DNA of 64,000 bases from Dictyostelium discoideum (taxonomy: Eukaryota). Positions 4,558-64,000 of this stretch are shown in pieces (position 1 is the first letter of the stretch; each line of letters starts with the position of its first letter). The stretch spans positions 6,293,300-6,357,299 of the forward strand of contig CM000152.2 of the NCBI GenBank assembly GCA_000004695.1, in the 5' to 3' direction. The notes under the pieces are model-generated. The model was not told where the DNA came from. It made no database searches and was given only the letters and a program-made list of their open reading frames with translations. Position numbers and translations under genes: made by a program.

Positions 4558-7500
4558 ATGAATGGATGGGGAGAAAGTGACGAGATAGAAGATTTTGACC
4601 CAGAAGCAGATTTAAAACAACAACCATCACAAAAACATCAACAACAACAACAACAACAACAACAACAAAAATCATCAACAACAACAACAACCACTACAAC
4701 AACTAAAATGAATGGTCATAATAATAATAATAATGGTGGTGGTGGTGGACATAAAAGACAACTTTCATTCAATCAATTAATGGATTCTATTTCAGGTACA
4801 TTACCATTTCAATTAGATATGAATAATGGTACTAGTAATAGTAGTAGCAGTAATAGTAATAATAATAATAATAATAATAGAACCAATACACCAATTAATA
4901 GAATATTTAGTAGTACAAATAGTTTAGAAGAATTACAAAATGGTATGATGATGAATGGTGGTGGTGGACAATCAACACCACCAATAATAAATAATAATAA
5001 TAATAATATAAATGGTCTCAAACAATCACAAGATTATGGTGAAACATTAAAAGAGATGATTAAAACAATTGAAAATTATAAGAAAGAAAACTTTGATTTA
5101 AAGATGCGTATATTTTATATGGATAGTAGTTTATCGATGACTAGTGAAGAAAAAAATATGTTTCAACAAAATATTGATTTAAAAGTTCAATTGGATGAAA
5201 AAACCAAACAATTGGAAGAGAGGGATAATGTAATTGTAAAATTGGATAAAGTGAATCAAGTTTTAAAAGAGAAATTAGAAAAACAAAAACAAAAAGAAGA
5301 GAAATTAAAAAATGAAATTGATCAATTATCAAATATAATTTCAAATCAAAATGATAAAGATAAAGATAAAGATAAGAAAAATAAAGATAACCAATCATCA
5401 TCATCATTACAACAACAACCACAACTACCACAACAACAACAAGTTGTAATTCAATATACAAAAGATCCAGAAGATAAAGATAAAATCATTCAACAACATA
5501 ATATAATTGAAGAATTAAATCATAAAATTGATGGATATGATGATGAGATTAAAGATTTGAAGAATCAAATTTTAAACGCAAATCAAGAATTAAAGAATCA
5601 AAAAAAGAATAATGAAAGATCACAAAAACAATTGGAGGATTCGTTAAGGGAGCAAAGAGCTATTGAACAAGAGATATTGGATAAGAATCAGGAATTACAA
5701 TCGATAAATTTAGAATTAAAGCATAGATTGGATAGATTGAATAATGAATTGGGTGAACAGAATCAATTGGATTCTCAAGAGATTGAACAATTGGAAAAGG
5801 ATTTAAAATCTACTAGATTGAAATTGGAGCAATTGAAAGGTCATTATGAACGTTTGAAACAGCATTATGAGGAATTAAAGAAACATTATGATGAACAGTT
5901 GGACACCATTGAGCAGTTAAAAAACTCGATTTTAGCTTACGAGAATTTACTAATTGAAAAGGATCATGAGATTCAATGCATCTTTGAACAACATCAACAA
6001 GAACTAATACAAATTCAAAACGATCATCAAAAGGCACTTGCTAATAAGGTTGGTGAGATCACAGAATTGCGTTCACAAATCAAGAGAATTCGTGAAGAAT
6101 TCTATGCATCCTCATTGGAAACTCAGCATAGTCAAGCGATTCACGAAAATTATAAACAAGAGATACAAACACTCTCTATGGATATTTCTAAATTGCATCA
6201 ATCCAATCAGGATTTAGAGTTACAATTACATTCTAAAACTATTTTAATCAATGATTATGAGAGAGCGTTGAGTAATTTAGAGAATACTCATAAGGAGTTG
6301 GTTGATGATGTTCAAAAGAAATTACATGAATTTACAATTCAAGCTGATCAACATCAAAAGGAGAAAGATGATTATCGTTTAATTGCATCGGAATTGGTTG
6401 TTGTTAAAAATCAATTAAAAGAATTAAGAGTGGATTATCAAAAATTGGAACAATTAAAACAACAACAATCCGATCAACAACAACAACAATTGATTGACCA
6501 AAAACAATACCAACAACAACAATTTGAACAACAAAAACAAAAATCTGATCAAGAGAATCAACAAAAGTTAATTACTATACAAAAACAAACCTCAAAACAA
6601 TTATTAGATCAAGAAACACTATATAAACAACAATTGGATAAATTGGAGGATACTTATCTATCGAAATTGAATAATCAAAATTCAAATAATCATCAAAAAA
6701 CTGAAACTTTTATTAAAGAGATGAAAGAGAATTATCAACAACTTCATCAAAAGAATATTTTAAATTTCTCAACAACTTTGATAACTATATTATCAACTAT
6801 TTCAAATACATTAATACCTTCAGTTTTGGCTAATCAACAACAACAGCAATTGCTATTCGATGAGAAGGAAGATCTACAAAATTATATTAAAAAATTAAAT
6901 AATAATATCAATGATTCAACAATAACTGATCTTCAAGAATTAATTTCATTAAAGATTGAAGAATGTAAACAATTGAATCAACGTGAATTTGATAATGGTC
7001 TTGTTAAAATTGAGAATGATTTCAATCAACGTTATCAACAATTATCAATACTATTGGATGAGAAATCAATGTTATTGGATCAATTGGAGACACAATTGGT
7101 CGAGGCTAAACAATTGACAACTCAAAATCAATTGATTGGTCAAGAACAACTTCAACAACAATATCAACAACATTTACAAACTTTTAAACTTCAAATTCAA
7201 CAACTTCAAGATCAACTCATTCAAAATAGAAGACAATATCAACAATCATTTGATGATCAAGTTAAACAACTCTCTCAATTTAATCTTGAAAATAAACATT
7301 TAGATCAATCAAATAAACAATTACAACAAAAGTTACAACAACAAATTACAATTTTAAATCAACAACATCAAATGGAATTACAACAACAATATCAACAATA
7401 TCAAAGAGAAATTTATCAAATTCAACAACAATTTAAAAATTTAAATAAATTAAATAATAATAATTCAACTACTACAACAACAACAACTTCATCATCATCC

Positions 7501-8297: not shown

Positions 8298-8375
<78 letters not shown>

Positions 8376-8795
8376 CCAAATAACCAACAACGAATCAACG
8401 ATCAAACCAAATCAATGTACATACAACCTTCATTGCAACCATCCAATAATAAACAACAACAACAAAAATCAGTTTCATCATCAACAACTACTGTTTCCAA
8501 GAACTCGTTAAATAAACCAATTGAAAATGTTAAATCATTAAATCAATCACAAATTCAACAACAAAAACAAACAACTACGACAACAACAACAACTACAAAT
8601 ACGACTAGAACTCAACAACAACAGCATCACCAATCGAAAGAAAATATTATCAATAGTAATGATATAAGATTAAGTGTTGAACCATTACATAAGGATCTTC
8701 ATATTAAAGAAACTCCTTATATTAAATTGGAAAACTCTCAAAAAATTGAAACTATTAACAAACAATTAAATTTACTTAAACAACAAATAAAATAA
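4558..8795 (+). CDS. Long Q-rich coiled-coil protein of about 1380 aa, exons 4558..7977 and 8070..8795.
   Basis: The 1164-aa ORF ends in a read-through of the intron: CAT GAT|GTAAGT at 7978. The acceptor TTTTTAG at 8069 restores a frame with no stop through a (CAA)n polyQ tract to the TAA at 8795. Heptad-rich sequence (LEEL.., KNQ..) is typical of coiled coils. The rest is polyQ/polyN/polyT low complexity. Confidence 0.7.
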
Positions 8796-14098: not shown

Positions 14099-14790
14099 AT
14101 ATGCAAGAATATTTATAAATAAATTTTTTAATTTTTTTTTATTTTTAATTTTTTTTTTTATTTTTAATTTTTTTTTTATTTTTAATTTTTTATTTATTTT
14201 AAAATAACATTATTATCGCACAACATAGATCACATGACCATTTTAGGACCGGTCTATTTTATGAAAAAAAAAAAATACTTTGAAAAAAAATAGAAAAAAA
14301 ATTAAAAATAAATAAAATTTTTATTTTTTTTTTTTCGAATTATAACCACCTTCCTTTTTAAAAATCGTTTTTTTTTTTTTTTGAGGGGTTGTGATATTAT
14401 TTTAATTAAAAAAAAAAATGAAAGAAGCATAGTGTTTCCATACATTAATGTTGAAAGTGTGGTGTTTTTCAGACTTTCCTTTTGAGAAATTCATTTGGGT
14501 TTTTTTTTTTTTGAAAACACATCAGATCAAAAAATAATTAAAATTAATTTTATTTTATTTTTATTACTGACCACCCGTCTCCTAAAAAATTTTCAATATA
14601 AAAAGGAGAAAAGAAAAAAAAAAATTTTTCATTTCATTCAACAATTACTTTTTTTTTAGTTGCATAAAAAAAAAACTTATAACAATAATTCATTTAAATA
14701 AATAAAAGTTATTTAAATAAAAACTTCAAATTATATATTCAATTTTTTCCCAATATTTATTTTTAGAAATTCTTTAAAAATAAATATTTT

Positions 14791-48828: not shown

Positions 48829-51182
<2,354 letters not shown>

Positions 51183-52000
51183 AAAAAAAATAAAAATAAA
51201 AAAATAAAAATCGATCAAGTAAAAAAAAAAAAAAATTAAAATTGTTTTAAAAAATATATTTATAGTTTTAAAATTTATTAATAAAATATGTATACCGTCA
51301 GCTGACGATCACTGACCCACTGTGGGGAAACGGCAAAAAAAATTAAATAATTAAAAAAAAAGTGGTAACTTTTATTTAATTTTTTATTTTATTTTTTATC
51401 TATTTATTTTTTTTTTTTTTTTCATTTATATTTTTTTTTTATTAAAATAAAAAATCAATAACACACCAAGATCACATACTCATGAATTTAATGGATATTT
51501 TTCATATGATAAATTTCAAGAATTTTATTTTCCTAGCCATTGCACTGTTGAATGTCTCAACGATTTCATTGAATCACTTGAGAAATATAAATCCATTTCA
51601 ACTCTCTATAAGTCACTGGAAGTTAACGAAGATGGCTTTTAAAAAAAATAAAAAAATAAATAAAATAAAAAAAAAAATAGAAATATAAAGATTATTATTT
51701 TTTTTATTATAAATAAATAAGATAAAAAAAAAAATAATATTAATTAAAAAAAATAATAATAATAAATTATAAGATTAATAATAATATAATAACTAAGTAA
51801 TAATAATAATAATAAAAAAAAAATAATAATAATTAAATTAATAAATTTGCATTAACCAATTGATTGATTATAATTTTTTATTTTTTATTTTAAATGTTTC
51901 ATTATTATTTTATTTTTTTCTGTTTTTTTTTTTTAATAATCTTTTTTCACCAGCAATCGATTGACCAAGCAATAATTTTGCATTGCTACCAATGTATTAA

Positions 52001-52190
52001 GTAAAATAAAACTTCGAAACTAATTTGTGAAGATCAAGAGTGTTCAAGATCAAAAGGAAATGCAACTTTGTTTTAGATTTAATTAAAAACTAAAAAAAAT
52101 AGAAAAAATAAAAATCGATCTTAACTAACACTTTAGAAAATACATATTTATTAATAGTTTTAAAATTTATTAATAGAAACATTTAAATTT
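52001..52190 (+). repeat. Segmental duplicate, about 90% identical, of the 3' end and downstream flank of the membrane-protein gene (source 51063..51290).
   Basis: 'AAATAAAACTTCGAAA.TAATTTGTGAAGATCAAGAGTGTTCAAGATCAAAAGGA.ATGCAACT..TGTTTTAGATTTAATTAAAAA..CTAAAAAAAAT' recurs, then '..AAAATCGATC..' and '..TTTAAAATTTATTAATA..'. Confidence 0.7.
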
Positions 52191-56495: not shown

Positions 56496-56910
56496 ATTAA
56501 AAATAAATAAAAAATATTTTTATTTTTAGTCCAAAAAAACAAATTAATTTATTAACACTTTAAAAAAAAAAAATGGAAAATGAAAATATTTTTTTTTTAA
56601 AACAATCATTTAATTTTATTTATTTCCAACATGGATTTACTTTATTTTTTTTATTTTATTTTATTTTTTTTTTATTTTTTTCAAATAAAAAAAATCTCCA
56701 CCAGGACCTCGTTAATATTTATTTCCAACATGGATTTAGTATATAAATATAACACACAAAAATACATAAAATGATTTTAAATAAAAAAAAAAAATAAAAA
56801 ATAATTATGATTTTTGAATTATTTATTATTATTTTTTTTACTTTTAACCTATAATTTTATTTTTAAAAAAAGAAAAAATTAATCAATTTATTATTGCACA
56901 AAAAATAAAA

Positions 56911-56977
56911 ATGAGATTAATATTGGTATTATTAGTTTTATTATATGTTTCTTTTTTAAATGTAGAGGTAAAGATAA

Positions 56978-57014
<37 letters not shown>

Positions 57015-58124
57015 TTTAAAAGAAATTTGTTTTTTTTTTTTTTAAATTTAAATCTTCCACATTTTTTTTAATTATTAATTTAATGATAATAATTTTAAAA
57101 AATAAACAAATAAAATAGACATGTTATTCAAAAATATTAGAAAATAAATATTATTTAAAATCAACTGAATGTAAAACTTTATCATGTGATGGAATTCAAT
57201 ATTTTATTGGTAGTAGTAATAGTTTTGAAATTGGTAGTACAATTACTATTTGTAATATTAATAATCAAGAACTTGCAAAAGAAAAACCAATTGGTAACCA
57301 ATATTCATCTATTGTGACTGATGTCATTCAAGCAGTTGCCAACTCTGTTCAAACTGCAATGAATAGTGCAGTTTCAACTTATTCTTCATTTAGTGGTAGT
57401 GGTGGTGATGATGATGGTGATGATGATGACGATGATAGTGGTTCTGGTTTATATAAAAGCTCAAGAGAATTATATAAAGGTGGTAATGGTAAGGTTGTTT
57501 CAGAAAAACCAATTATATCATTCGATAAAAAACATACTTCAATTGGATCAGATGTTCTTCAGGCAGTTTCCAACCCTGTACAATCTGCAATGAATGGTGC
57601 AGTTTCAACAATTGCTTCATTAAGTGGTGGTGGTTCAAGCGATGATGATGATGATGGTGCTTTTGTTAAAGGTGGTGATAGCGCTTCCTATAAAGGTGGA
57701 TATGGTAAATCAATATCTGATATTCTTGATTTAATTAGACCACCAAGAAATCATTATGCTAAATGTAATAAAATTCTAACTGTTGGTTTGTATGTAAATT
57801 AGCTATTATTAGTTTTTTATTATTTATTAATTTTTTATTTTTTATTTTTAATTTATATTTAAAATCAGAGGTGAAAAGGAAACTACTGATAGTTCTACTA
57901 TTGATGTATCTAAAAAAGTTTGTATTGATTTGTTTGGAATTGAAGAATTTAAATTAGAGGAACAAAGAATTATTTCAGCTGTTCAATCAACTAAAAATGA
58001 TTGCTTCCCAAATGAAGGTCAATTTTATGTCTCTAAAGAAGAATATAATACAATTATTAAACACAGTCAAATTTTAAGAAACCAATGTCACTTAAAAGGA
58101 AAATGTCAATTCACCAAAATTTAA
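56911..58124 (+). CDS. Secreted, Asp-rich, Cys-containing protein with an internal direct repeat. This is copy 1 of a tandem pair. Exons 56911..56967, 57119..57789 and 57869..58124.
   Basis: Exon 1 'MRLILVLLVLLYVSFLNVE' is a signal peptide ending at the donor |GTAAAG. Exon 2 (acceptor AAATAG|, phase 0) carries two copies of 'DV.QAV.N.VQ.AMN.AVST..S.SGGG..DDD.DDD' and ends at the donor TT|GTATGT. Exon 3 (acceptor ATCAG|) gives '..VCIDLFGIEEFKLEEQRIISAVQSTKNDCFPNEGQFYVSKEEYNTIIKHSQILRNQCHLKGKCQFTKI*'. The 'M' codons in the ORF track at 57314 and 57930 are GTG and TTG, not ATG. Confidence 0.6.
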
Positions 58125-58211
58125 TCAATGTGTTTACTTATTGAAAACTCAATGATAATAAAATTTTAAAAAATCAAAATTACCTAATTTTGCCATTAAA
58201 GTTTTATAGGT

Positions 58212-58261
<50 letters not shown>

Positions 58262-59056
58262 ACAATACTAATAATGTTCAACATTTGTTTTTTGAGTTGA
58301 TGGGATATTTTTGAAAAAAGATAGATTAAAATATCTTGTTATAACATTAAAATAATCTAATTTAATTATTAATGTTTATTCTATTGAAATTTAAAAAGGT
58401 TAATAATTTAAAATTTTATTTTAATTTTTAAGATTTCCCAGATACGACACAAGACTGCAGTAATAGTTCAACATAAAAAAAACATTAATATTTAAAGGTA
58501 TCATTTAAAATTACAAAAAATTGTGCAATTTCAAATTTTAATTTTATTTTTAATATTAAAAACAATATTAGTCAAAAAAAAACAAATTTATTTTACATTT
58601 AAGTTTTAAACTTTTAAAAAAAAATGGAAAATGAAAATATTTTTTTTAAACAATTATTTAATTTTATTTCTAAAATGGATTTAGTATATAACACAAAAAT
58701 AAATAAAATGAATGTAACCATCATGATTTTTGAATTATTTTTTTTTTCTTACTTTTAATCAAAAAAAAAATTGGTGGTAAATACAACAAAAAAGATATTT
58801 CATGAAAAAAAAAAAAAAAAAATTAAAAAAAAAAACAAAATGGTTTGAGTTCATAAAAATCCAATTTTTGGGTTTCGGTATTAAAGAAATCCTGGTAGAG
58901 ATTTTTTTTTTTGAAAAAAAATAAAATAAAATAAAAAAATAAAAAAATAAAAAAATAAAAAAAAAAAAAAGAAGGAATATTTTTTTTTTTTTTCTTTTCC
59001 ATTTAAAAAATATTTTTTTTTTTTATAAATAGAAAACAAATAGGCATAAAAAAAAA

Positions 59057-60298
59057 ATGAGATTAATATTGGTATTATTAGTTTTATTATATGTTTCTTT
59101 TTTAAATGTAGAGGTAAAGATAATAAAATAAAAAAAAAATAAAAAATTGTTTCAAAAAAGAAATTTGTTTTTTTTTTTAAATATTTTTAAATCTTCCACA
59201 TTTTTTTAATTATTAATTTAATGATAATAATTTTAAAAAACAAATTAATAATATAGACATGTTATTCAAAAACATTAGAAAATGAATATTATTTAAAATC
59301 AACTGAATGTAAAACTTTATCATGTGATGGAATTCAATATTTTATTGGTAGTAGTAATAGTTTTGAAGTTGGTAGTACAATTACTATTTGTAATATTAAT
59401 AATCAAGAACTTGCAAAAGAAAAACCAATTGGTAAAAAACATTCATCTATTGGGTCAGACGTCCTTCAAGCAGTTGCCAACTCTGTTCAATCTGCAATGA
59501 ATGGTGTAGTTTCATCTATTGGTTCATTAAGTGGTGGTAGTGGTGGTGATGATGATGGTGATGATGATGACGATGATAGTGGTTCTGGTTTATATAAAAG
59601 CTCAAGAGAATTATATAAAGGTGGTAATGGTAAAGTTGTTTCAGAAAAACCAATTGTATCATTCGATAAAAAACATACTTCAATTGGATCAGATGTTCTT
59701 CAAGCAGTTTCCAACTCTGTACAATCTGCAATGAATGGTGCAGTTTCAACAATTGCTTCATTAAGTGGTGGTGGTTCAAGCGATGATGATGATGATGGTG
59801 CTTTTGTTAAAGGTGGTGATAGCGCTTCCTATAAAGGTGGATATGGTAAATCAATCTCTGATATTCTTGATTTAATTAGACCACCAAGAAATCATTATGC
59901 TAAATGTATTAAAGTTTTAACTGTTAATTTGTATGTAAATTTATTATTATTAGTTTTTTATTATTTATTTATTATATTAATTTTTTATTTATCATTAATT
60001 TATTATTTTTTATTATTAATTTTGTTTTATTTTTAAAATCAGAGGTGAAAAGGAAATTATTGATAGTTCTACTATTGATGTATCCAAAAAAGTTTGTATT
60101 GATTTGTTTGGAATTGAAGAATGTAAATTAGAGGAACAAAGAATTATTTCAGCTGTTCAATCAACTAAAAATGATGGCTTCCCAAATGAAGGTCAATTTT
60201 ATGTCTCTAAAGAAGAATATAATACAATTATTAAACACGGTCAAATTTTAAGAAACCAATGTCACTTAAAAGGAAAATGTCAATTCACCAAAATTTAA
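59057..60298 (+). CDS. Copy 2 of the tandem secreted Asp-rich protein gene, exons 59057..59113, 59257..59930 and 60043..60298.
   Basis: The exon structure and splice sites are the same as in copy 1. The signal peptide and third exon are near-identical. The first half of exon 2 has diverged ('GKKHSSIGSDVLQAVANSVQSAMNGVVSSIGSLSGGSGG' versus 'GNQYSSIVTDVIQAVANSVQTAMNSAVSTYSSFSGSGG'). Confidence 0.6.
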
Positions 60299-60414
60299 TC
60301 AATGTGTTTACTTATTGAAAACTCAATGATAATAAATTTTTCAATAAACCAAAATTACCTAATTTTGCCATAAAAGTTTTATTGGTGTTTTTTTTTATTA
60401 TATTATAATAATAC

Positions 60415-60445
<31 letters not shown>

Positions 60446-61924
60446 ATATTCAACATTTGTTTTTTGAGTTGATGGGATATTTTTTAAAAAAAGATAGGCT
60501 AAAATATCTTATTTTAACATTAAAATAATCTATTTTAATTATTAATGTTTATTCTATTGAAATTTAAAAAGATTATTAATTTATATAAATATTTAAAATA
60601 AATAAAATAAAATAATTTAAAATTTTTTTTTTATTATTAAAAACCAAAATATTAAATTAATTTAAAGATTTCTCAGATACGACACAAGACTGCAATAGTT
60701 TCAAATGAAAAAAAACATTAGTATTTAAAAAAAAGAGGTTGAATATCAAAGTTAAATAAAAAAAGGTATCATATAAAAATATTGTACAATTTTAAAAAAA
60801 AAAAAAAAAATAATTTTTTTTTAAATTTTTAAGATTTCTTTGATGCAATACAAGACTAAAGAGGTTAATAGATTTTAGTATAAATAGTTTTAAAATGTTA
60901 AAAGAAAATTAGTTAAGAAAATAATAAATTAATTAGAAATTAATGAGAAATTAGAAAGAATTAAAGAAAATGCTATACATATAAAACTATAAAACCCTCT
61001 TTTAGAGATATATAAATAATAAAACTTCTTGTATTCGTCTCCTCATTGCTAAATTGTCTTCATTTATTTAAGAATAATTAATAAACATAGTTAAATAATA
61101 AATAAATAATATTATATATAGTATACAACAATACATTCTTTATTATACTTAATAACAACAATAATACCACTCTTAAATGATTCCTGGGAATGTTACAATT
61201 TTTTATATTAAAAACTATATTGTAATGGTTAATAATTATTGAGTTTACAGGACCAATCTTATTGAAAAATCTCTGCACCGCAAAATCATTCAAAAACCTC
61301 TTACCTACATTTAATTCAACCAAATTTTTATTGGCAATATCTTGACCCATCGTCTAAAGAAATAGTAAACTCCATTTCCATCAAAGATTTCATCCAAAAG
61401 TCCATTTGCATTTGGTTATTTTTTTTGTCATTCAATTGTTTACGAACATATATTCATTTGCTTGATGCCTTATTGGAATTCCTTGGAAATAATTATTGCT
61501 TATGATCCCAAGATAATAACAATAATAATATTAGTTATATTATTTTCATTGTTTAATAGTTTTTTTTCGTAATAGAGAATTTAAAAAAAAAGTATATATT
61601 AAAAAAATAAAATTAAAAAACTAAGCTTCAAGAATCAATGATTTTTTTTTTCTTTTTTTTTTTCTATTTTTTTTTCTATTTTTTTTCTATTATTTTTTTT
61701 ATTTTTTTTTGTAGTTTAAATTCACACAACACATAATTTTTAATTAATTTTAATTTTTTTATTTATTTTGTAGTTTGAAATTTGTTTATTTCAAAGAGTT
61801 CACAAAAGTGGTTGCTTTTTTGCTCTTAATTTAATTTTTTTATTTATTTTTAAATTATTATTTCAATTTTTTATATTATTTTTTTTTTCCTATTTTTTTT
61901 TTATATTTCTTTTGTTTAAATAAG

Positions 61925-62150
61925 TTAAAAAAAAAATGAATAACACCAAGATCACATGTCCCATGCCAAAATTAATATGGCTGCTGGAATTAATATGGTA
62001 ATTTTGGCATGGGACTTATGTCTGCTAGAATTACCATATTAATTTCAGCAGCCATATTAATTTTGGCATGCACAGACCAACTATTTTAGGCTGAAATTAA
62101 TATGGCTGCTGAAATTAATATGGTAATTTTGGGCATAGAAATATAAAAAA
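61925..62150. repeat. Palindromic repeat cluster with three copies in forward-reverse-forward order. The 45-nt unit is 'AAATTAATATGGCTGCTGRAATTAATATGGTAATTTTGGCATG' and is itself internally repetitive. A 19-nt 'AATAACACCAAGATCACAT' leader precedes the cluster.
   Basis: Copies lie at about 61947-61995 (forward), 62023-62070 (reverse complement) and 62092-62140 (forward). The leader motif also occurs at 51459-51480. Confidence 0.7.
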
Positions 62151-62535
62151 AAAAACTCAAAGTCATTTAATTAATAATAATCATCTCAAATATAAAAGAA
62201 TTAAAAATAATAATAAAAAAAACTCATGGGATTAATTATAGTAACAATACTGACGACAAGAATAATTATAAAATAAAAAAAAAAAAAAAAAAAAAATCTT
62301 TTTTTATCTTATTATTTTTATTTCTTATTTATTTTCATGTGTTCAAAAAAAGTGGTGGTTTAAAACAATTTATTTAATTTTAAACTGTATGATTGTTTAA
62401 ACAATTTCGAAATAAGTTTCTTTAAAGAAATTCTGTATTTCTTTTTTTTATTTTATTTTATTTCATTTCATTCTATTTTTTTTTTTTTATTTTTTTTATT
62501 TTTTTATTTTTTTATTTTTTTTTTGTATATTTAAG

Positions 62536-62537
<2 letters not shown>

Positions 62538-62632
<95 letters not shown>

Positions 62633-62634
62633 TA

Positions 62635-62678
<44 letters not shown>

Positions 62679-62688
62679 ATTACTATTA
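62538..62688. repeat. (ATT)n microsatellite of about 50 units with one interruption.
   Basis: Directly visible. Confidence 0.9.
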
Positions 62689-62975
62689 TTTAATTGACCG
62701 AAGGGATATCTTTTACTTTTTTTTTATATATAATTGTTCGAAACTTTAAAAAATAAAATAAAAAAAAAAAATTAAAAAAAAAAATTTAAAAAAAAGAAAT
62801 ATAAAAAAAAAAATATAAAAAAAAAAATTAAAAAAAAAAAGTATTTTTTTTTTTATTTTTTTATTTTTCTAAAGTTTTCGTTCCAAAAAATGGTCTTCAG
62901 TAAAGACAATAAATTAAATAATCAACTTTCTGCAACAGAAATTGAAAAAATAATAAAAATAAATTAAAAAAACTC

Positions 62976-63642
62976 TTGGAAAAATATGACGAAGATGTAA
63001 AATTTAAAATAGATTATAAATTTCATAATACCAAATTGAGTGGACAAAATATAAGCTATTGGAAAAACATTTTGGATAAACAGTATGTTGTTGAGAATGT
63101 AGAATATGGTACGGCAACTATTAAAGAAGTGTTTTATATTGATAAAGATAAAAAGAAAAAATTGGTACCCAAAAGACTTAGTGAAGATTATAGAGAAGGT
63201 TAGGCTTAACAAAGATGAAGATGGTGTCTCTCATATGATTAATCAAAACCAGTGTCAACAGCACATCAGTAATCATTATAAAGCAGATAATCATTCTGCT
63301 ATTATAAAGGCTTATTACAATACTGAGCCTACTTCTAGAATAGAGGCCACCAAACTCTCAAGTAAAAATAAATTGCAAAGGGATATCGAAATAACCAAAA
63401 GAAAATCAACAGATGACCTAGTTGGAAAAGCAATCGAGCACTCTACCACCGAAGTTAGATCAACACATGAAGCTGCAACAACTTCCAATAATGGTGGAAT
63501 CACAACTCAATCAAACAAAAACAAAACGGGTAAAAAAAGAGCTAATCAATTACAATCTGATGCTGATTTTTTCACCAAAAGATTTTCAAACGAAACTTCA
63601 TCTGTTAGTAACAAAAGAGTAAGTAGAAGAGTAGATAATTAA
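62976..63642 (+). other. Two overlapping hydrophilic ORFs, unassigned, in frames 0 and +1 next to the contig gap. They may be a frameshifted gene or a transposon-derived ORF.
   Basis: The GC content is moderately above the intergenic background. I recognise no domain. Too little sequence separates the two frames for an intron to explain the shift. Confidence 0.2.
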
Positions 63643-63900
63643 AAAAAAAAAATTAAAAAAAAAAAATTATTTTAATTTTTTTTTTTTTTTTTTTATTTTA
63701 TTTTTTTTTTTTATTTTTAATTTTTTTTTTTTGTTAGCCTTAGAAATAAATGAATAATAAAAAAATATATATCAACTAAAAAAAAAAGAAATGAAAATAA
63801 ATTATAAAATTAATAATAAAAATAAAAAGATAAAAATAAATAAAAGATATAAATAAAATAATATGAAAATTTTTTTTTTTTTTTTTATTATTATAATTAT

Positions 63901-64000
63901 NNNNNNNNNNNNNNNNNNNNNNNNNNNNNNNNNNNNNNNNNNNNNNNNNNNNNNNNNNNNNNNNNNNNNNNNNNNNNNNNNNNNNNNNNNNNNNNNNNNN
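63901..64000. other. Assembly gap (run of N).
   Basis: One hundred N characters. Confidence 1.

Follow-up and report, generated by a model that had tools for sequence, protein, structure and literature searches.

A palindromic repeat cluster of Dictyostelium discoideum as the probable left end of a thug-S transposon and the precursor hairpin of mir-7131

Does a 226-nt cluster of alternating palindromic repeats at positions 61925-62150 of a 64,000-nt stretch of Dictyostelium discoideum DNA (the window, here always the whole stretch analysed) belong to a mobile element, to a structured RNA gene or to neither? The first-pass annotation of the window had left three options open, namely a MITE-like element, a terminal fragment of an unrecognised transposon and a structured non-coding RNA locus, and had described the cluster as led by a 19-nt motif that recurs 10 kb away. 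The source is strain AX4, two open reading frames being exactly DDB_G0282857 (20730-22202, minus strand) and DDB_G0282881 (39762-41057); the window has a GC content of ~22% and numerous simple repeats, and it ends in an assembly gap (a run of N, 63901-64000), so that neither the right end of the element discussed below nor its right flank can be seen. The site belongs to chromosome 3 and lies downstream of DDB_G0282881. Judged from its sequence, the cluster is very probably the left terminal inverted-repeat region of thug-S, a ~1.97-kb non-autonomous cut-and-paste transposon whose end would at the same time be mir-7131, with the leader motif belonging to a host gene. The cluster is thus real and well characterised, and already known: the transposon family and the microRNA have both been published, with an entry in Rfam.

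Inverted- and direct-repeat analysis recovered the three units of ~45 nt in the forward-reverse-forward order that had been described. The first of them (F, 61958-62015, plus strand) is a terminal, self-complementary unit of 58 bp (GTCCCATGCCAAAATTA...TAATTTTGGCATGGGAC), found as an inverted repeat and with a 98% match to element positions 1917-1974; the second (R, 62023-62070, plus strand) is a reverse-complement copy, common to both of two alternative hairpins; and the third (F', 62094-62132, plus strand) is a direct repeat, 97% identical to the first. The arms 61962-62009 and 62023-62070 are 94% complementary across a loop of 13 nt, and the arms 62029-62063 and 62094-62128 are 100% complementary across a loop of 30 nt. 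Each unit does contain a duplicated core, with the structure AATTAATATGG-CTGCTG-(G/A)AATTAATATGG, and the 11-mer AATTAATATGG is present in six exact copies within ~155-170 bp, four on the plus strand and two on the minus strand. The 17-mer unit core occurs at just three positions in the window (0.15 expected), all of them in the cluster.

The capacity of these units to form long hairpins was borne out by folding against 200 dinucleotide shuffles, none of which folded as well: the 226-nt region reached −91.7 kcal/mol (z = −12.1 on the plus strand, z = −10.8 on the minus strand) and the 117-nt F-R hairpin −77.1 kcal/mol (z = −16). Two mutually exclusive folds are available, one pairing F with R, the other combining a self-hairpin of the terminal unit with R paired to F'. 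The latter pairing (62029-62128, plus strand) has a perfect 35-bp stem and a 30-nt loop and is used by the minimum-free-energy structure of the 226-nt region; the same R-F arrangement is found in the terminal repeats of an autonomous relative (the L009 termini). The former corresponds to the mir-7131 precursor hairpin at 61974-62060 (plus strand, F paired with R, 13-nt loop). When the whole window was scanned against Rfam at gathering thresholds, RF03716 (mir-7131) was the only family to match, with no other Rfam family and no tRNA; it scored 96.2 bits on the plus strand and 90.7 bits on the minus strand, over model positions 1-84 of 84, compared with a gathering score of 74 bits. The option of a structured RNA locus therefore holds in the specific sense of a curated microRNA precursor. 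The stem register is that of the model, and the window copy departs from the consensus in two respects: its loop is 3 nt larger, and a copy-specific G replaces the consensus A at 61987, giving GGAATT in place of GAAATT. The miRBase deposit ddi-mir-7131 (Rfam RF03716 family) reportedly goes back to Avesson et al. 2012. Neither the name mir-7131 nor the unit sequence was found in the supplements of PMC11014262, PMC6161686 and PMC4894637.

The same hairpin can be recognised in published small RNAs. Table 2 of Meier et al. 2016 (PMC4894637) gives the thug-S species miRNA_can_D3-5p as UAUGGCUGCUGAAAUUAAUGUGG and miRNA_can_D3-3p as AUUAAUUUCGGCAGCCAUAUU. The 5p sequence lies at 61976-61998 on the plus strand with 2 mismatches, with a second match at 62101-62123 (1 mismatch), and the 3p sequence at 62038-62058 on the plus strand with 1 mismatch; the 3p sequence is exact in two sister copies that were retrieved independently (L004:4123 and L005:3998, both on the minus strand). 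The published 5p and 3p sequences fall on opposite arms of the stable hairpin. By sequence correspondence, the cluster hairpin is an already catalogued microRNA precursor, mir-7131, published also as miRNA_can_D3. The identification of the element as thug-S and as the source of mir-7131 draws on the sequences and text of Meier et al. 2016 together with the Rfam match, and on these grounds the transposon is hardly an unrecognised one, its microRNAs having already been published (PMC4894637, PMC6161686). According to the literature, Avesson et al. 2012 were the first to report thug-S-derived microRNAs, which Meier et al. 2016 (PMC4894637) then saw again, and the multicopy microRNA loci are described as part of thug-S and as microprocessor-dependent (PMC6161686, PMC4894637). 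Like the element described here, thug-S (Glockner et al. 2001; cited in PMC4894637, PMC6161686 and PMC5633606) is a multicopy repeat of the same species and the source of the published miRNA hairpin; no difference from it was found in a comparison that covers published miRNA sequences and text and a window copy cut by the assembly gap.

Granting a thug-S end, the small RNAs could still be self-directed siRNAs that silence thug, a side effect of the palindromic terminal repeat and not miRNAs aimed at host targets, with the repeats selected for transposase binding only. We consider this reading a serious rival, though less likely than not. With 94-100% of its bases paired over 35-48 bp, the hairpin is so regular and long that it resembles an siRNA precursor more than the usual bulged miRNA stem; complementary sites are present in every copy, with both arms in both orientations per element; and Meier et al. 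describe the thug-S miRNA signals as weak and call one thug-S species non-canonical (PMC4894637). Against it, the published species meets miRNA criteria, and the thug-S hairpin small RNAs are down in rbdB- and up in agnA- (PMC4894637, Table 2); they are found mainly in development. DrnB, moreover, is reported to be miRNA-specific, and transposon siRNAs persist without it. We retain the reading of the small RNAs as microRNAs; for the window copy itself, both the yield of small RNAs and the strand transcribed are putative.

To which larger unit the hairpin belongs is answered by the other copies. The first-pass annotation had proposed to check copy number and flanking target-site duplications (TSDs), and this check gave five other D. 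discoideum copies, with perfect 6-bp TSDs in all four that are complete. The copies of this interspersed repeat, which lie on different contigs, are the window copy, L001, L002, L003 and L004 (complete), L005 (partial) and L008 (a long form). In blastn, the window matched L001 (9068-11042), L002 (9081-11035) and L003 (3061-5040) with 95-99% identity, each match starting exactly at 61957, and in an alignment of six copies all bases are conserved from TGTCCC (61957) on, the 30 nt upstream being unrelated. The visible part of the element, which starts TGTCCCATGCC, thus extends over 61957-63900 on the plus strand. The four complete copies measure 1564-1980 bp, start TGTCCCATGCC and end GGCATGGGACA (TGT...ACA), and are bracketed by GTTGCA, TATAAC, ATTAAC and CATATT. 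Comparison of the left 270 bp of L001 with the reverse complement of its right 270 bp revealed perfect 17-bp termini (TGTCCCATGCCAAAATTA / TAATTTTGGCATGGGACA) followed by ~240 bp of imperfect inverted sub-terminal sequence. The inner part of this long imperfect repeat lies in the window at 62133-62200 (plus strand; GGGCATAG, an A-run and CTCAAAGTCATTTAATTAATAATAATCATCTCAAA) and recurs in mirrored form on the right side of complete copies. In these copies the outermost 58-bp self-complementary unit stands at both ends in direct orientation, and the mir-7131 model matches only the left end of each copy, a match obtained in L001-L004 and in all copies that were examined. From the shared start, the TSDs and the TGT...ACA ends it follows that the cluster would be the terminal repeat on the left side of a non-autonomous DNA transposon of ~1.97 kb; of the earlier options, those of a transposon terminus and of a structured RNA locus are then essentially right together. 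Strictly speaking the element is no MITE, being ~1.97 kb long and retaining transposase remnants.

The TSDs and shared ends also bear on the possibility of a free-standing host gene for a microRNA or another structured RNA, lying outside any transposon, with repeats kept for RNA structure only. The Rfam match and the extreme folding z-scores would suit such a gene, as would a T-run followed by a G at ~61893-61914, a T-rich tract upstream of the hairpin that resembles the pri-miRNA start motif of PMC6161686. We nevertheless regard it as highly improbable: in all cases the hairpin makes up the opening ~100 bp of a repeated unit of ~2 kb that has TSDs, inverted ends and transposase remnants, and the near-equal scores of the hairpin on the two strands are those expected of a DNA palindrome, not of a strand-specific RNA gene. 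The orthologous regions of D. citrinum (L006) and D. firmibasis (L007), furthermore, lack the hairpin, with no counterpart of 60320-61957 and no thug motifs in either.

For the window copy of the thug-S element, completeness and a TSD can be predicted by analogy. The gap appears to take away its last ~75 bp on the right, and the right terminal repeat with them; the hexamer ATCACA at 61951-61956 (plus strand) would be the left TSD copy, on the model of the TSDs of L001-L004, and the hidden junction is predicted to read ...GGCATGGGACA at ~1.97 kb from 61957, then ATCACA and TACTCATGAAT..., followed by a small ORF. Together with ATCACA, the four TSDs make five hexamers that are A/T-rich and without consensus.

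We then turn to the 19-nt motif, which the first-pass annotation had taken as the leader of the cluster. It recurs once in the window, as proposed: the copy at 51457-51477 is longer by 2 inserted nt (AATAAC[AC]ACCAAGATCACAT). If up to 3 mismatches are allowed, the 19-mer has 2 matches in the window where 0.03 are expected, and the two sites share the 12-mer CCAAGATCACAT without a mismatch. The GC-rich palindrome (CGTCAGCTGACG) was confirmed as well, ~130 bp upstream of the copy at 51.4 kb. The degenerate version reported at 14218, by contrast with these two sites, shares GATCACAT only, is missed at up to 3 mismatches with the 19-mer and up to 1 with the 12-mer, and is attributable to chance. 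Nor does the motif lead the cluster: the repeat of the six copies begins just after it, at 61957, and the flanks are unrelated. It belongs instead to the host DNA beside the element, as the 5' leader of a small gene that is present in several copies.

This gene is visible in uninterrupted form elsewhere. The host promoter and 5' leader would occupy 61795-61956 (plus strand), where ~165 nt are homologous to L010:1990-2200, and contain AAAAGTGGT at 61804, T-rich tracts, ATTTCTTTTGTTTAAATAAG and, at 61939-61956, the supposed leader motif. In L010, from D. discoideum strain ACTFIW, the sequence runs on without interruption (...ATCACATACTCATGAATTTAAT...) into a 101-aa ORF, and reads ...CCAAGATCACA|TACTCATGAATTTAAT... 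in a segment just downstream of a kinase gene; the position is paralogous to that in the window and not an orthologous allele. A second uninterrupted target paralogue lies in the window itself at 51457-51688 (plus strand), with the leader AATAACACACCAAGATCACA, then TACTC and an ATG at 51482, its ORF being frameshifted and shortened. Both uninterrupted copies read ...ATCACA|TACTCATG..., and comparison with them puts the thug-S insertion at ATCACA, 5 nt short of the ATG of one gene copy. The recurrence of the motif 10 kb away is therefore due to paralogy of the target, and a further insertion of the element is not needed to explain it. With the kinase gene and the tandem gene as queries, homology searches returned other species only. 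The orthologous loci of L006 and L007 supply no empty-site allele. Two further candidates were tried and rejected, namely a second element insertion at 51.4 kb, where there are no hairpin units, and a gene that starts from the ATG at 61936 and has the cluster as an intron, which gives no open splice product and whose ATG is that of the host leader, present also in L010.

These comparisons decide against a MITE or other mobile element with the 19-nt motif as its 5' terminus and with 51459 and 14218 as further insertions or solo termini. The significant recurrence at 51457-51477 and the position of both copies after T-rich tracts speak for it; yet the homology of the six copies starts at TGTCCC, the TSDs bracket TGTCCC...GGGACA with the motif outside, at two places the motif runs into TACTCATG and the ORF without a hairpin cluster, and the 14218 site is not significant. 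We regard this reading as all but refuted. Chance palindromes in very AT-rich, low-complexity intergenic DNA can be dismissed despite the base composition and the many simple repeats of the window, none of the shuffles having folded as well and the unit being not low in complexity and conserved base for base at five other loci.

If the cluster is the end of thug-S, its two roles can be connected in a simple scheme. The array of AATTAATATGG motifs may, by its arrangement, be a binding array for the transposase. With the motif pairs arranged head to head, a transcript that crosses the end from outside would fold into a hairpin of ~48 bp and could be diced; the Dicer-like protein DrnB, with RbdB, would then produce small RNAs of ~21-23 nt, as the literature describes for the family rather than for the window copy. 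The T-rich promoter of the host gene would here be directed into the hairpin and might act as its pri-miRNA promoter. Three gene models of the family (P0010-P0012) begin MAAEINMVILAWDL, inside the terminal repeat, so that the hairpin region falls within their first intron or adjoins it, in agreement with the description by Meier et al.

The inner part of the element contains what is left of a transposase. With the 469-aa protein P0019 as a tblastn query, remnants of an integrase-type transposase gene were found at 62979-63627 (plus strand): residues 31-99, 89-169 (frameshifted) and 362-469 are present in the window, and ~170-361, the catalytic core, are deleted. A 178-aa frame lies here, 1.1 kb downstream of the cluster (63106-63642, plus strand), and is a fusion of N- and C-terminal transposase remnants without a Pfam domain; indeed, Pfam gave nothing above threshold for the ORFs of 178, 75, 68 and 101 aa. 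An identical 178-aa protein is encoded at L001 and L002, from a newer D. discoideum assembly, the ORF is 99% identical to DDB_G0271172, and the AX4 genes DDB_G0271172, DDB_G0290953 and DDB_G0281529 encode variants of it. An exhaustive, profile-free HMMER search among 1.8 billion representatives connected this 178-aa frame with proteins 382-469 aa in length, which come from isolates of D. discoideum and from D. cf. discoideum. Three such proteins (P0019, P0021 and P0022) carry the Pfam domain rve with 52-60 bits (cut-off 32.6), and the closest PDB matches of the rve proteins are retroviral integrases. A candidate DDE triad was read by eye in the relatives (FDTCY, CDNGSEN, GKIERWN), and no HHCC zinc finger was seen when the transposase N-terminus was read in the same way. 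Two loci connect these genes with thug-S: L008 has the left 1189 bp in common with thug-S, including the hairpin cluster, followed by an rve gene, and L009 contains, at 4618-7232, a complete 2.6-kb relative with ~130-bp terminal inverted repeats of the same motif. As the core is missing from thug-S and the L008 and L009 relatives carry the rve gene, thug-S would be a non-autonomous derivative that arose by internal deletion from an element of ~2.6-3.7 kb encoding an integrase-type (rve, DD~35E) transposase.

The affinities of this transposase are a lead and not a result, and come from profile matches, ends and TSDs; they point to a placement near IS481, IS3EU and GingerRoot. The terminal inverted repeats, the TSD of fixed length and the related DDE-encoding autonomous element put thug-S in the TIR order of class II, and its 1.56-1.98 kb and its N- and C-terminal transposase fragments put it outside the MITEs (< ~800 bp, no coding remnants). 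For the rve-type DDE transposases of the autonomous relatives the best NCBIfam model is IS481 (83.6 bits), then IS3 (56-59 bits), all below the family cut-offs (83.6 vs 224). TSDs of 6 bp are shared with IS3EU, GingerRoot and most IS481 elements, and the TGT...ACA termini are the pattern of IS481EU and occasionally of GingerRoot (PMC10045372, PMC6839031); IS3EU termini are normally TA..TA, and the TG..CA of thug-S fits the minority GingerRoot pattern only. The complex palindromic terminal repeats are not described for the IS3EU/GingerRoot and IS481/IS481EU groups. The Ginger2/Tdd elements Tdd-4 and Tdd-5 (PMC2836005) share the host, an integrase-like transposase and TG..CA-type ends, with terminal repeats of 260-297 bp, but their TSDs are 5 bp long and those of other Ginger2 elements 4 bp (PMC2836005), whereas thug-S has 6 bp in 4/4 copies, outside the 4-5 bp of Ginger2/Tdd.

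How the end of a transposon came to be a microRNA precursor can be approached from the terminal unit. Hairpins of transposon origin that give microRNAs are known in plants and animals, among them the MIR genes derived from MITEs and human mir-548 from Made1. As in these cases, the inverted repeats of a non-autonomous transposon would become a Dicer substrate when transcribed from outside; unlike in them, the thug-S hairpin lies within one terminal repeat, formed by head-to-head sub-repeats, and not between the two ends. The 58-bp terminal unit is absent from the ends of the autonomous relative, and thug-S may have gained it as an extra, self-complementary unit (F) that pairs with the ancestral sub-terminal repeat (R). 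Taken as one proposal, we tentatively suggest, with rather less than even confidence in the whole, that thug elements are rve (DD~35E) transposons with TGT...ACA ends and 6-bp TSDs, nearer to IS481, IS3EU and GingerRoot than to Tdd; that mir-7131 was born from the extra 58-bp unit; and that the window copy is a host-driven pri-miRNA and at the same time a knocked-out gene copy. If true, the extra-unit event would date the birth of the microRNA to one specific rearrangement of a transposon end.

The locus is in this respect a worked example of a sub-terminal array of putative transposase-binding sites that doubles as a Dicer substrate, and it teaches that a striking leader motif beside a repeat can be target DNA and not part of the element. 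For curators of the Dictyostelium genome, the points of use are the proposed transposase class of thug, the 6-bp TSD, the likely origin of thug-S by deletion and of the hairpin from an extra terminal unit, and the insertion that appears to disrupt a small multi-copy gene. The side results are also relevant to a question of Avesson et al., whether new microRNAs in Amoebozoa arise from repetitive elements. The apparent nature of thug as an integrase-type transposon also contrasts with a remark in a review that the transposases of Dictyostelium DNA transposons resemble no known transposase (PMC5633606).

The small multi-copy host gene whose 19-nt 5' leader recurs in the window seems to be a unit that moves or duplicates, as judged from its genomic distribution. 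The ~830-bp segment 51172-52003, in which the leader and a degenerate small ORF lie together with the GC-rich palindrome CGTCAGCTGACG (51290-51335), is missing from the orthologous intergenic region in both D. citrinum (L006) and D. firmibasis (L007). It is flanked by a ~100-bp direct duplication, with copies at 51071-51171 and 52004-52101 that are 95% identical. In the D. discoideum strain ACTFIW, a related unit occupies another position, immediately after the kinase gene (L010:1973-2560). It is this differing position, together with the absence from the other two species and the flanking duplication, that points to movement or duplication.

The motif AAAAGTGGT occurs four times in the window, all on the + strand (13534, 51358, 61804 and 62348), against 0.61 occurrences expected, a count of four being reached in 1 of 100 shuffles. 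Two of the copies precede the leader, 99 and 135 nt upstream, and one lies within thug-S, the non-autonomous DNA transposon inserted at 61957, upstream of its ORFs. The motif, which may be a promoter element, is conserved in ACTFIW as CACAAAAGTGGTAAC.

A three-exon gene is tandemly duplicated in the window (56903-58146 and 59049-60320), its product being a Gly/Asp-rich, secreted-looking protein of ~327 aa. The gene is duplicated in ACTFIW too (L010), and its counterpart is single-copy in D. citrinum (L006 13818-15112) and in D. firmibasis. For the 1.6-kb stretch that precedes the thug-S insertion (60320-61957), no counterpart was found in the D. citrinum and D. firmibasis loci, the contigs of which both end at most ~10 kb from the kinase gene. 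ACTFIW encodes P0022, a diverged thug-like transposase, a few kb past the tandem genes (L010 10001-13599). The region around 60320-61957 looks lineage-specific and repeat-prone.

The long relatives of thug (L008 4074-7094 and L009 4618-7232; proteins P0019, P0021 and P0022) encode an rve/DDE transposase of 382-469 aa, with IS481 as the top profile match; their ends are TGT..ACA and their TSDs 6 bp long. According to a review, the transposases of Dictyostelium DNA transposons are like no known transposase (PMC5633606); the classification of these transposons may be worth revisiting. The 178-aa ORF of thug-S (63106-63642) joins N-terminal and C-terminal parts of the transposase and lacks the catalytic core, the retained N-terminal part being putatively DNA-binding. 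This ORF, 99-100% conserved in three thug-S copies, could encode a truncated-transposase regulator or could merely reflect a recent deletion. Most of the size differences among thug-S copies are explained by a long (ATT)n microsatellite of variable length within the element (62530-62665).

The thug-S copy at L002 (9081-11035) adjoins rDNA: one gene each for 5S and large-subunit rRNA (L002 1412-6910) is found ~2 kb away. At L001, the complete copy is preceded, ~650 bp upstream, by an additional ~90-bp piece of thug terminal-repeat units (8338-8426), an arrangement consistent with the reported tendency of thug elements to insert close together.
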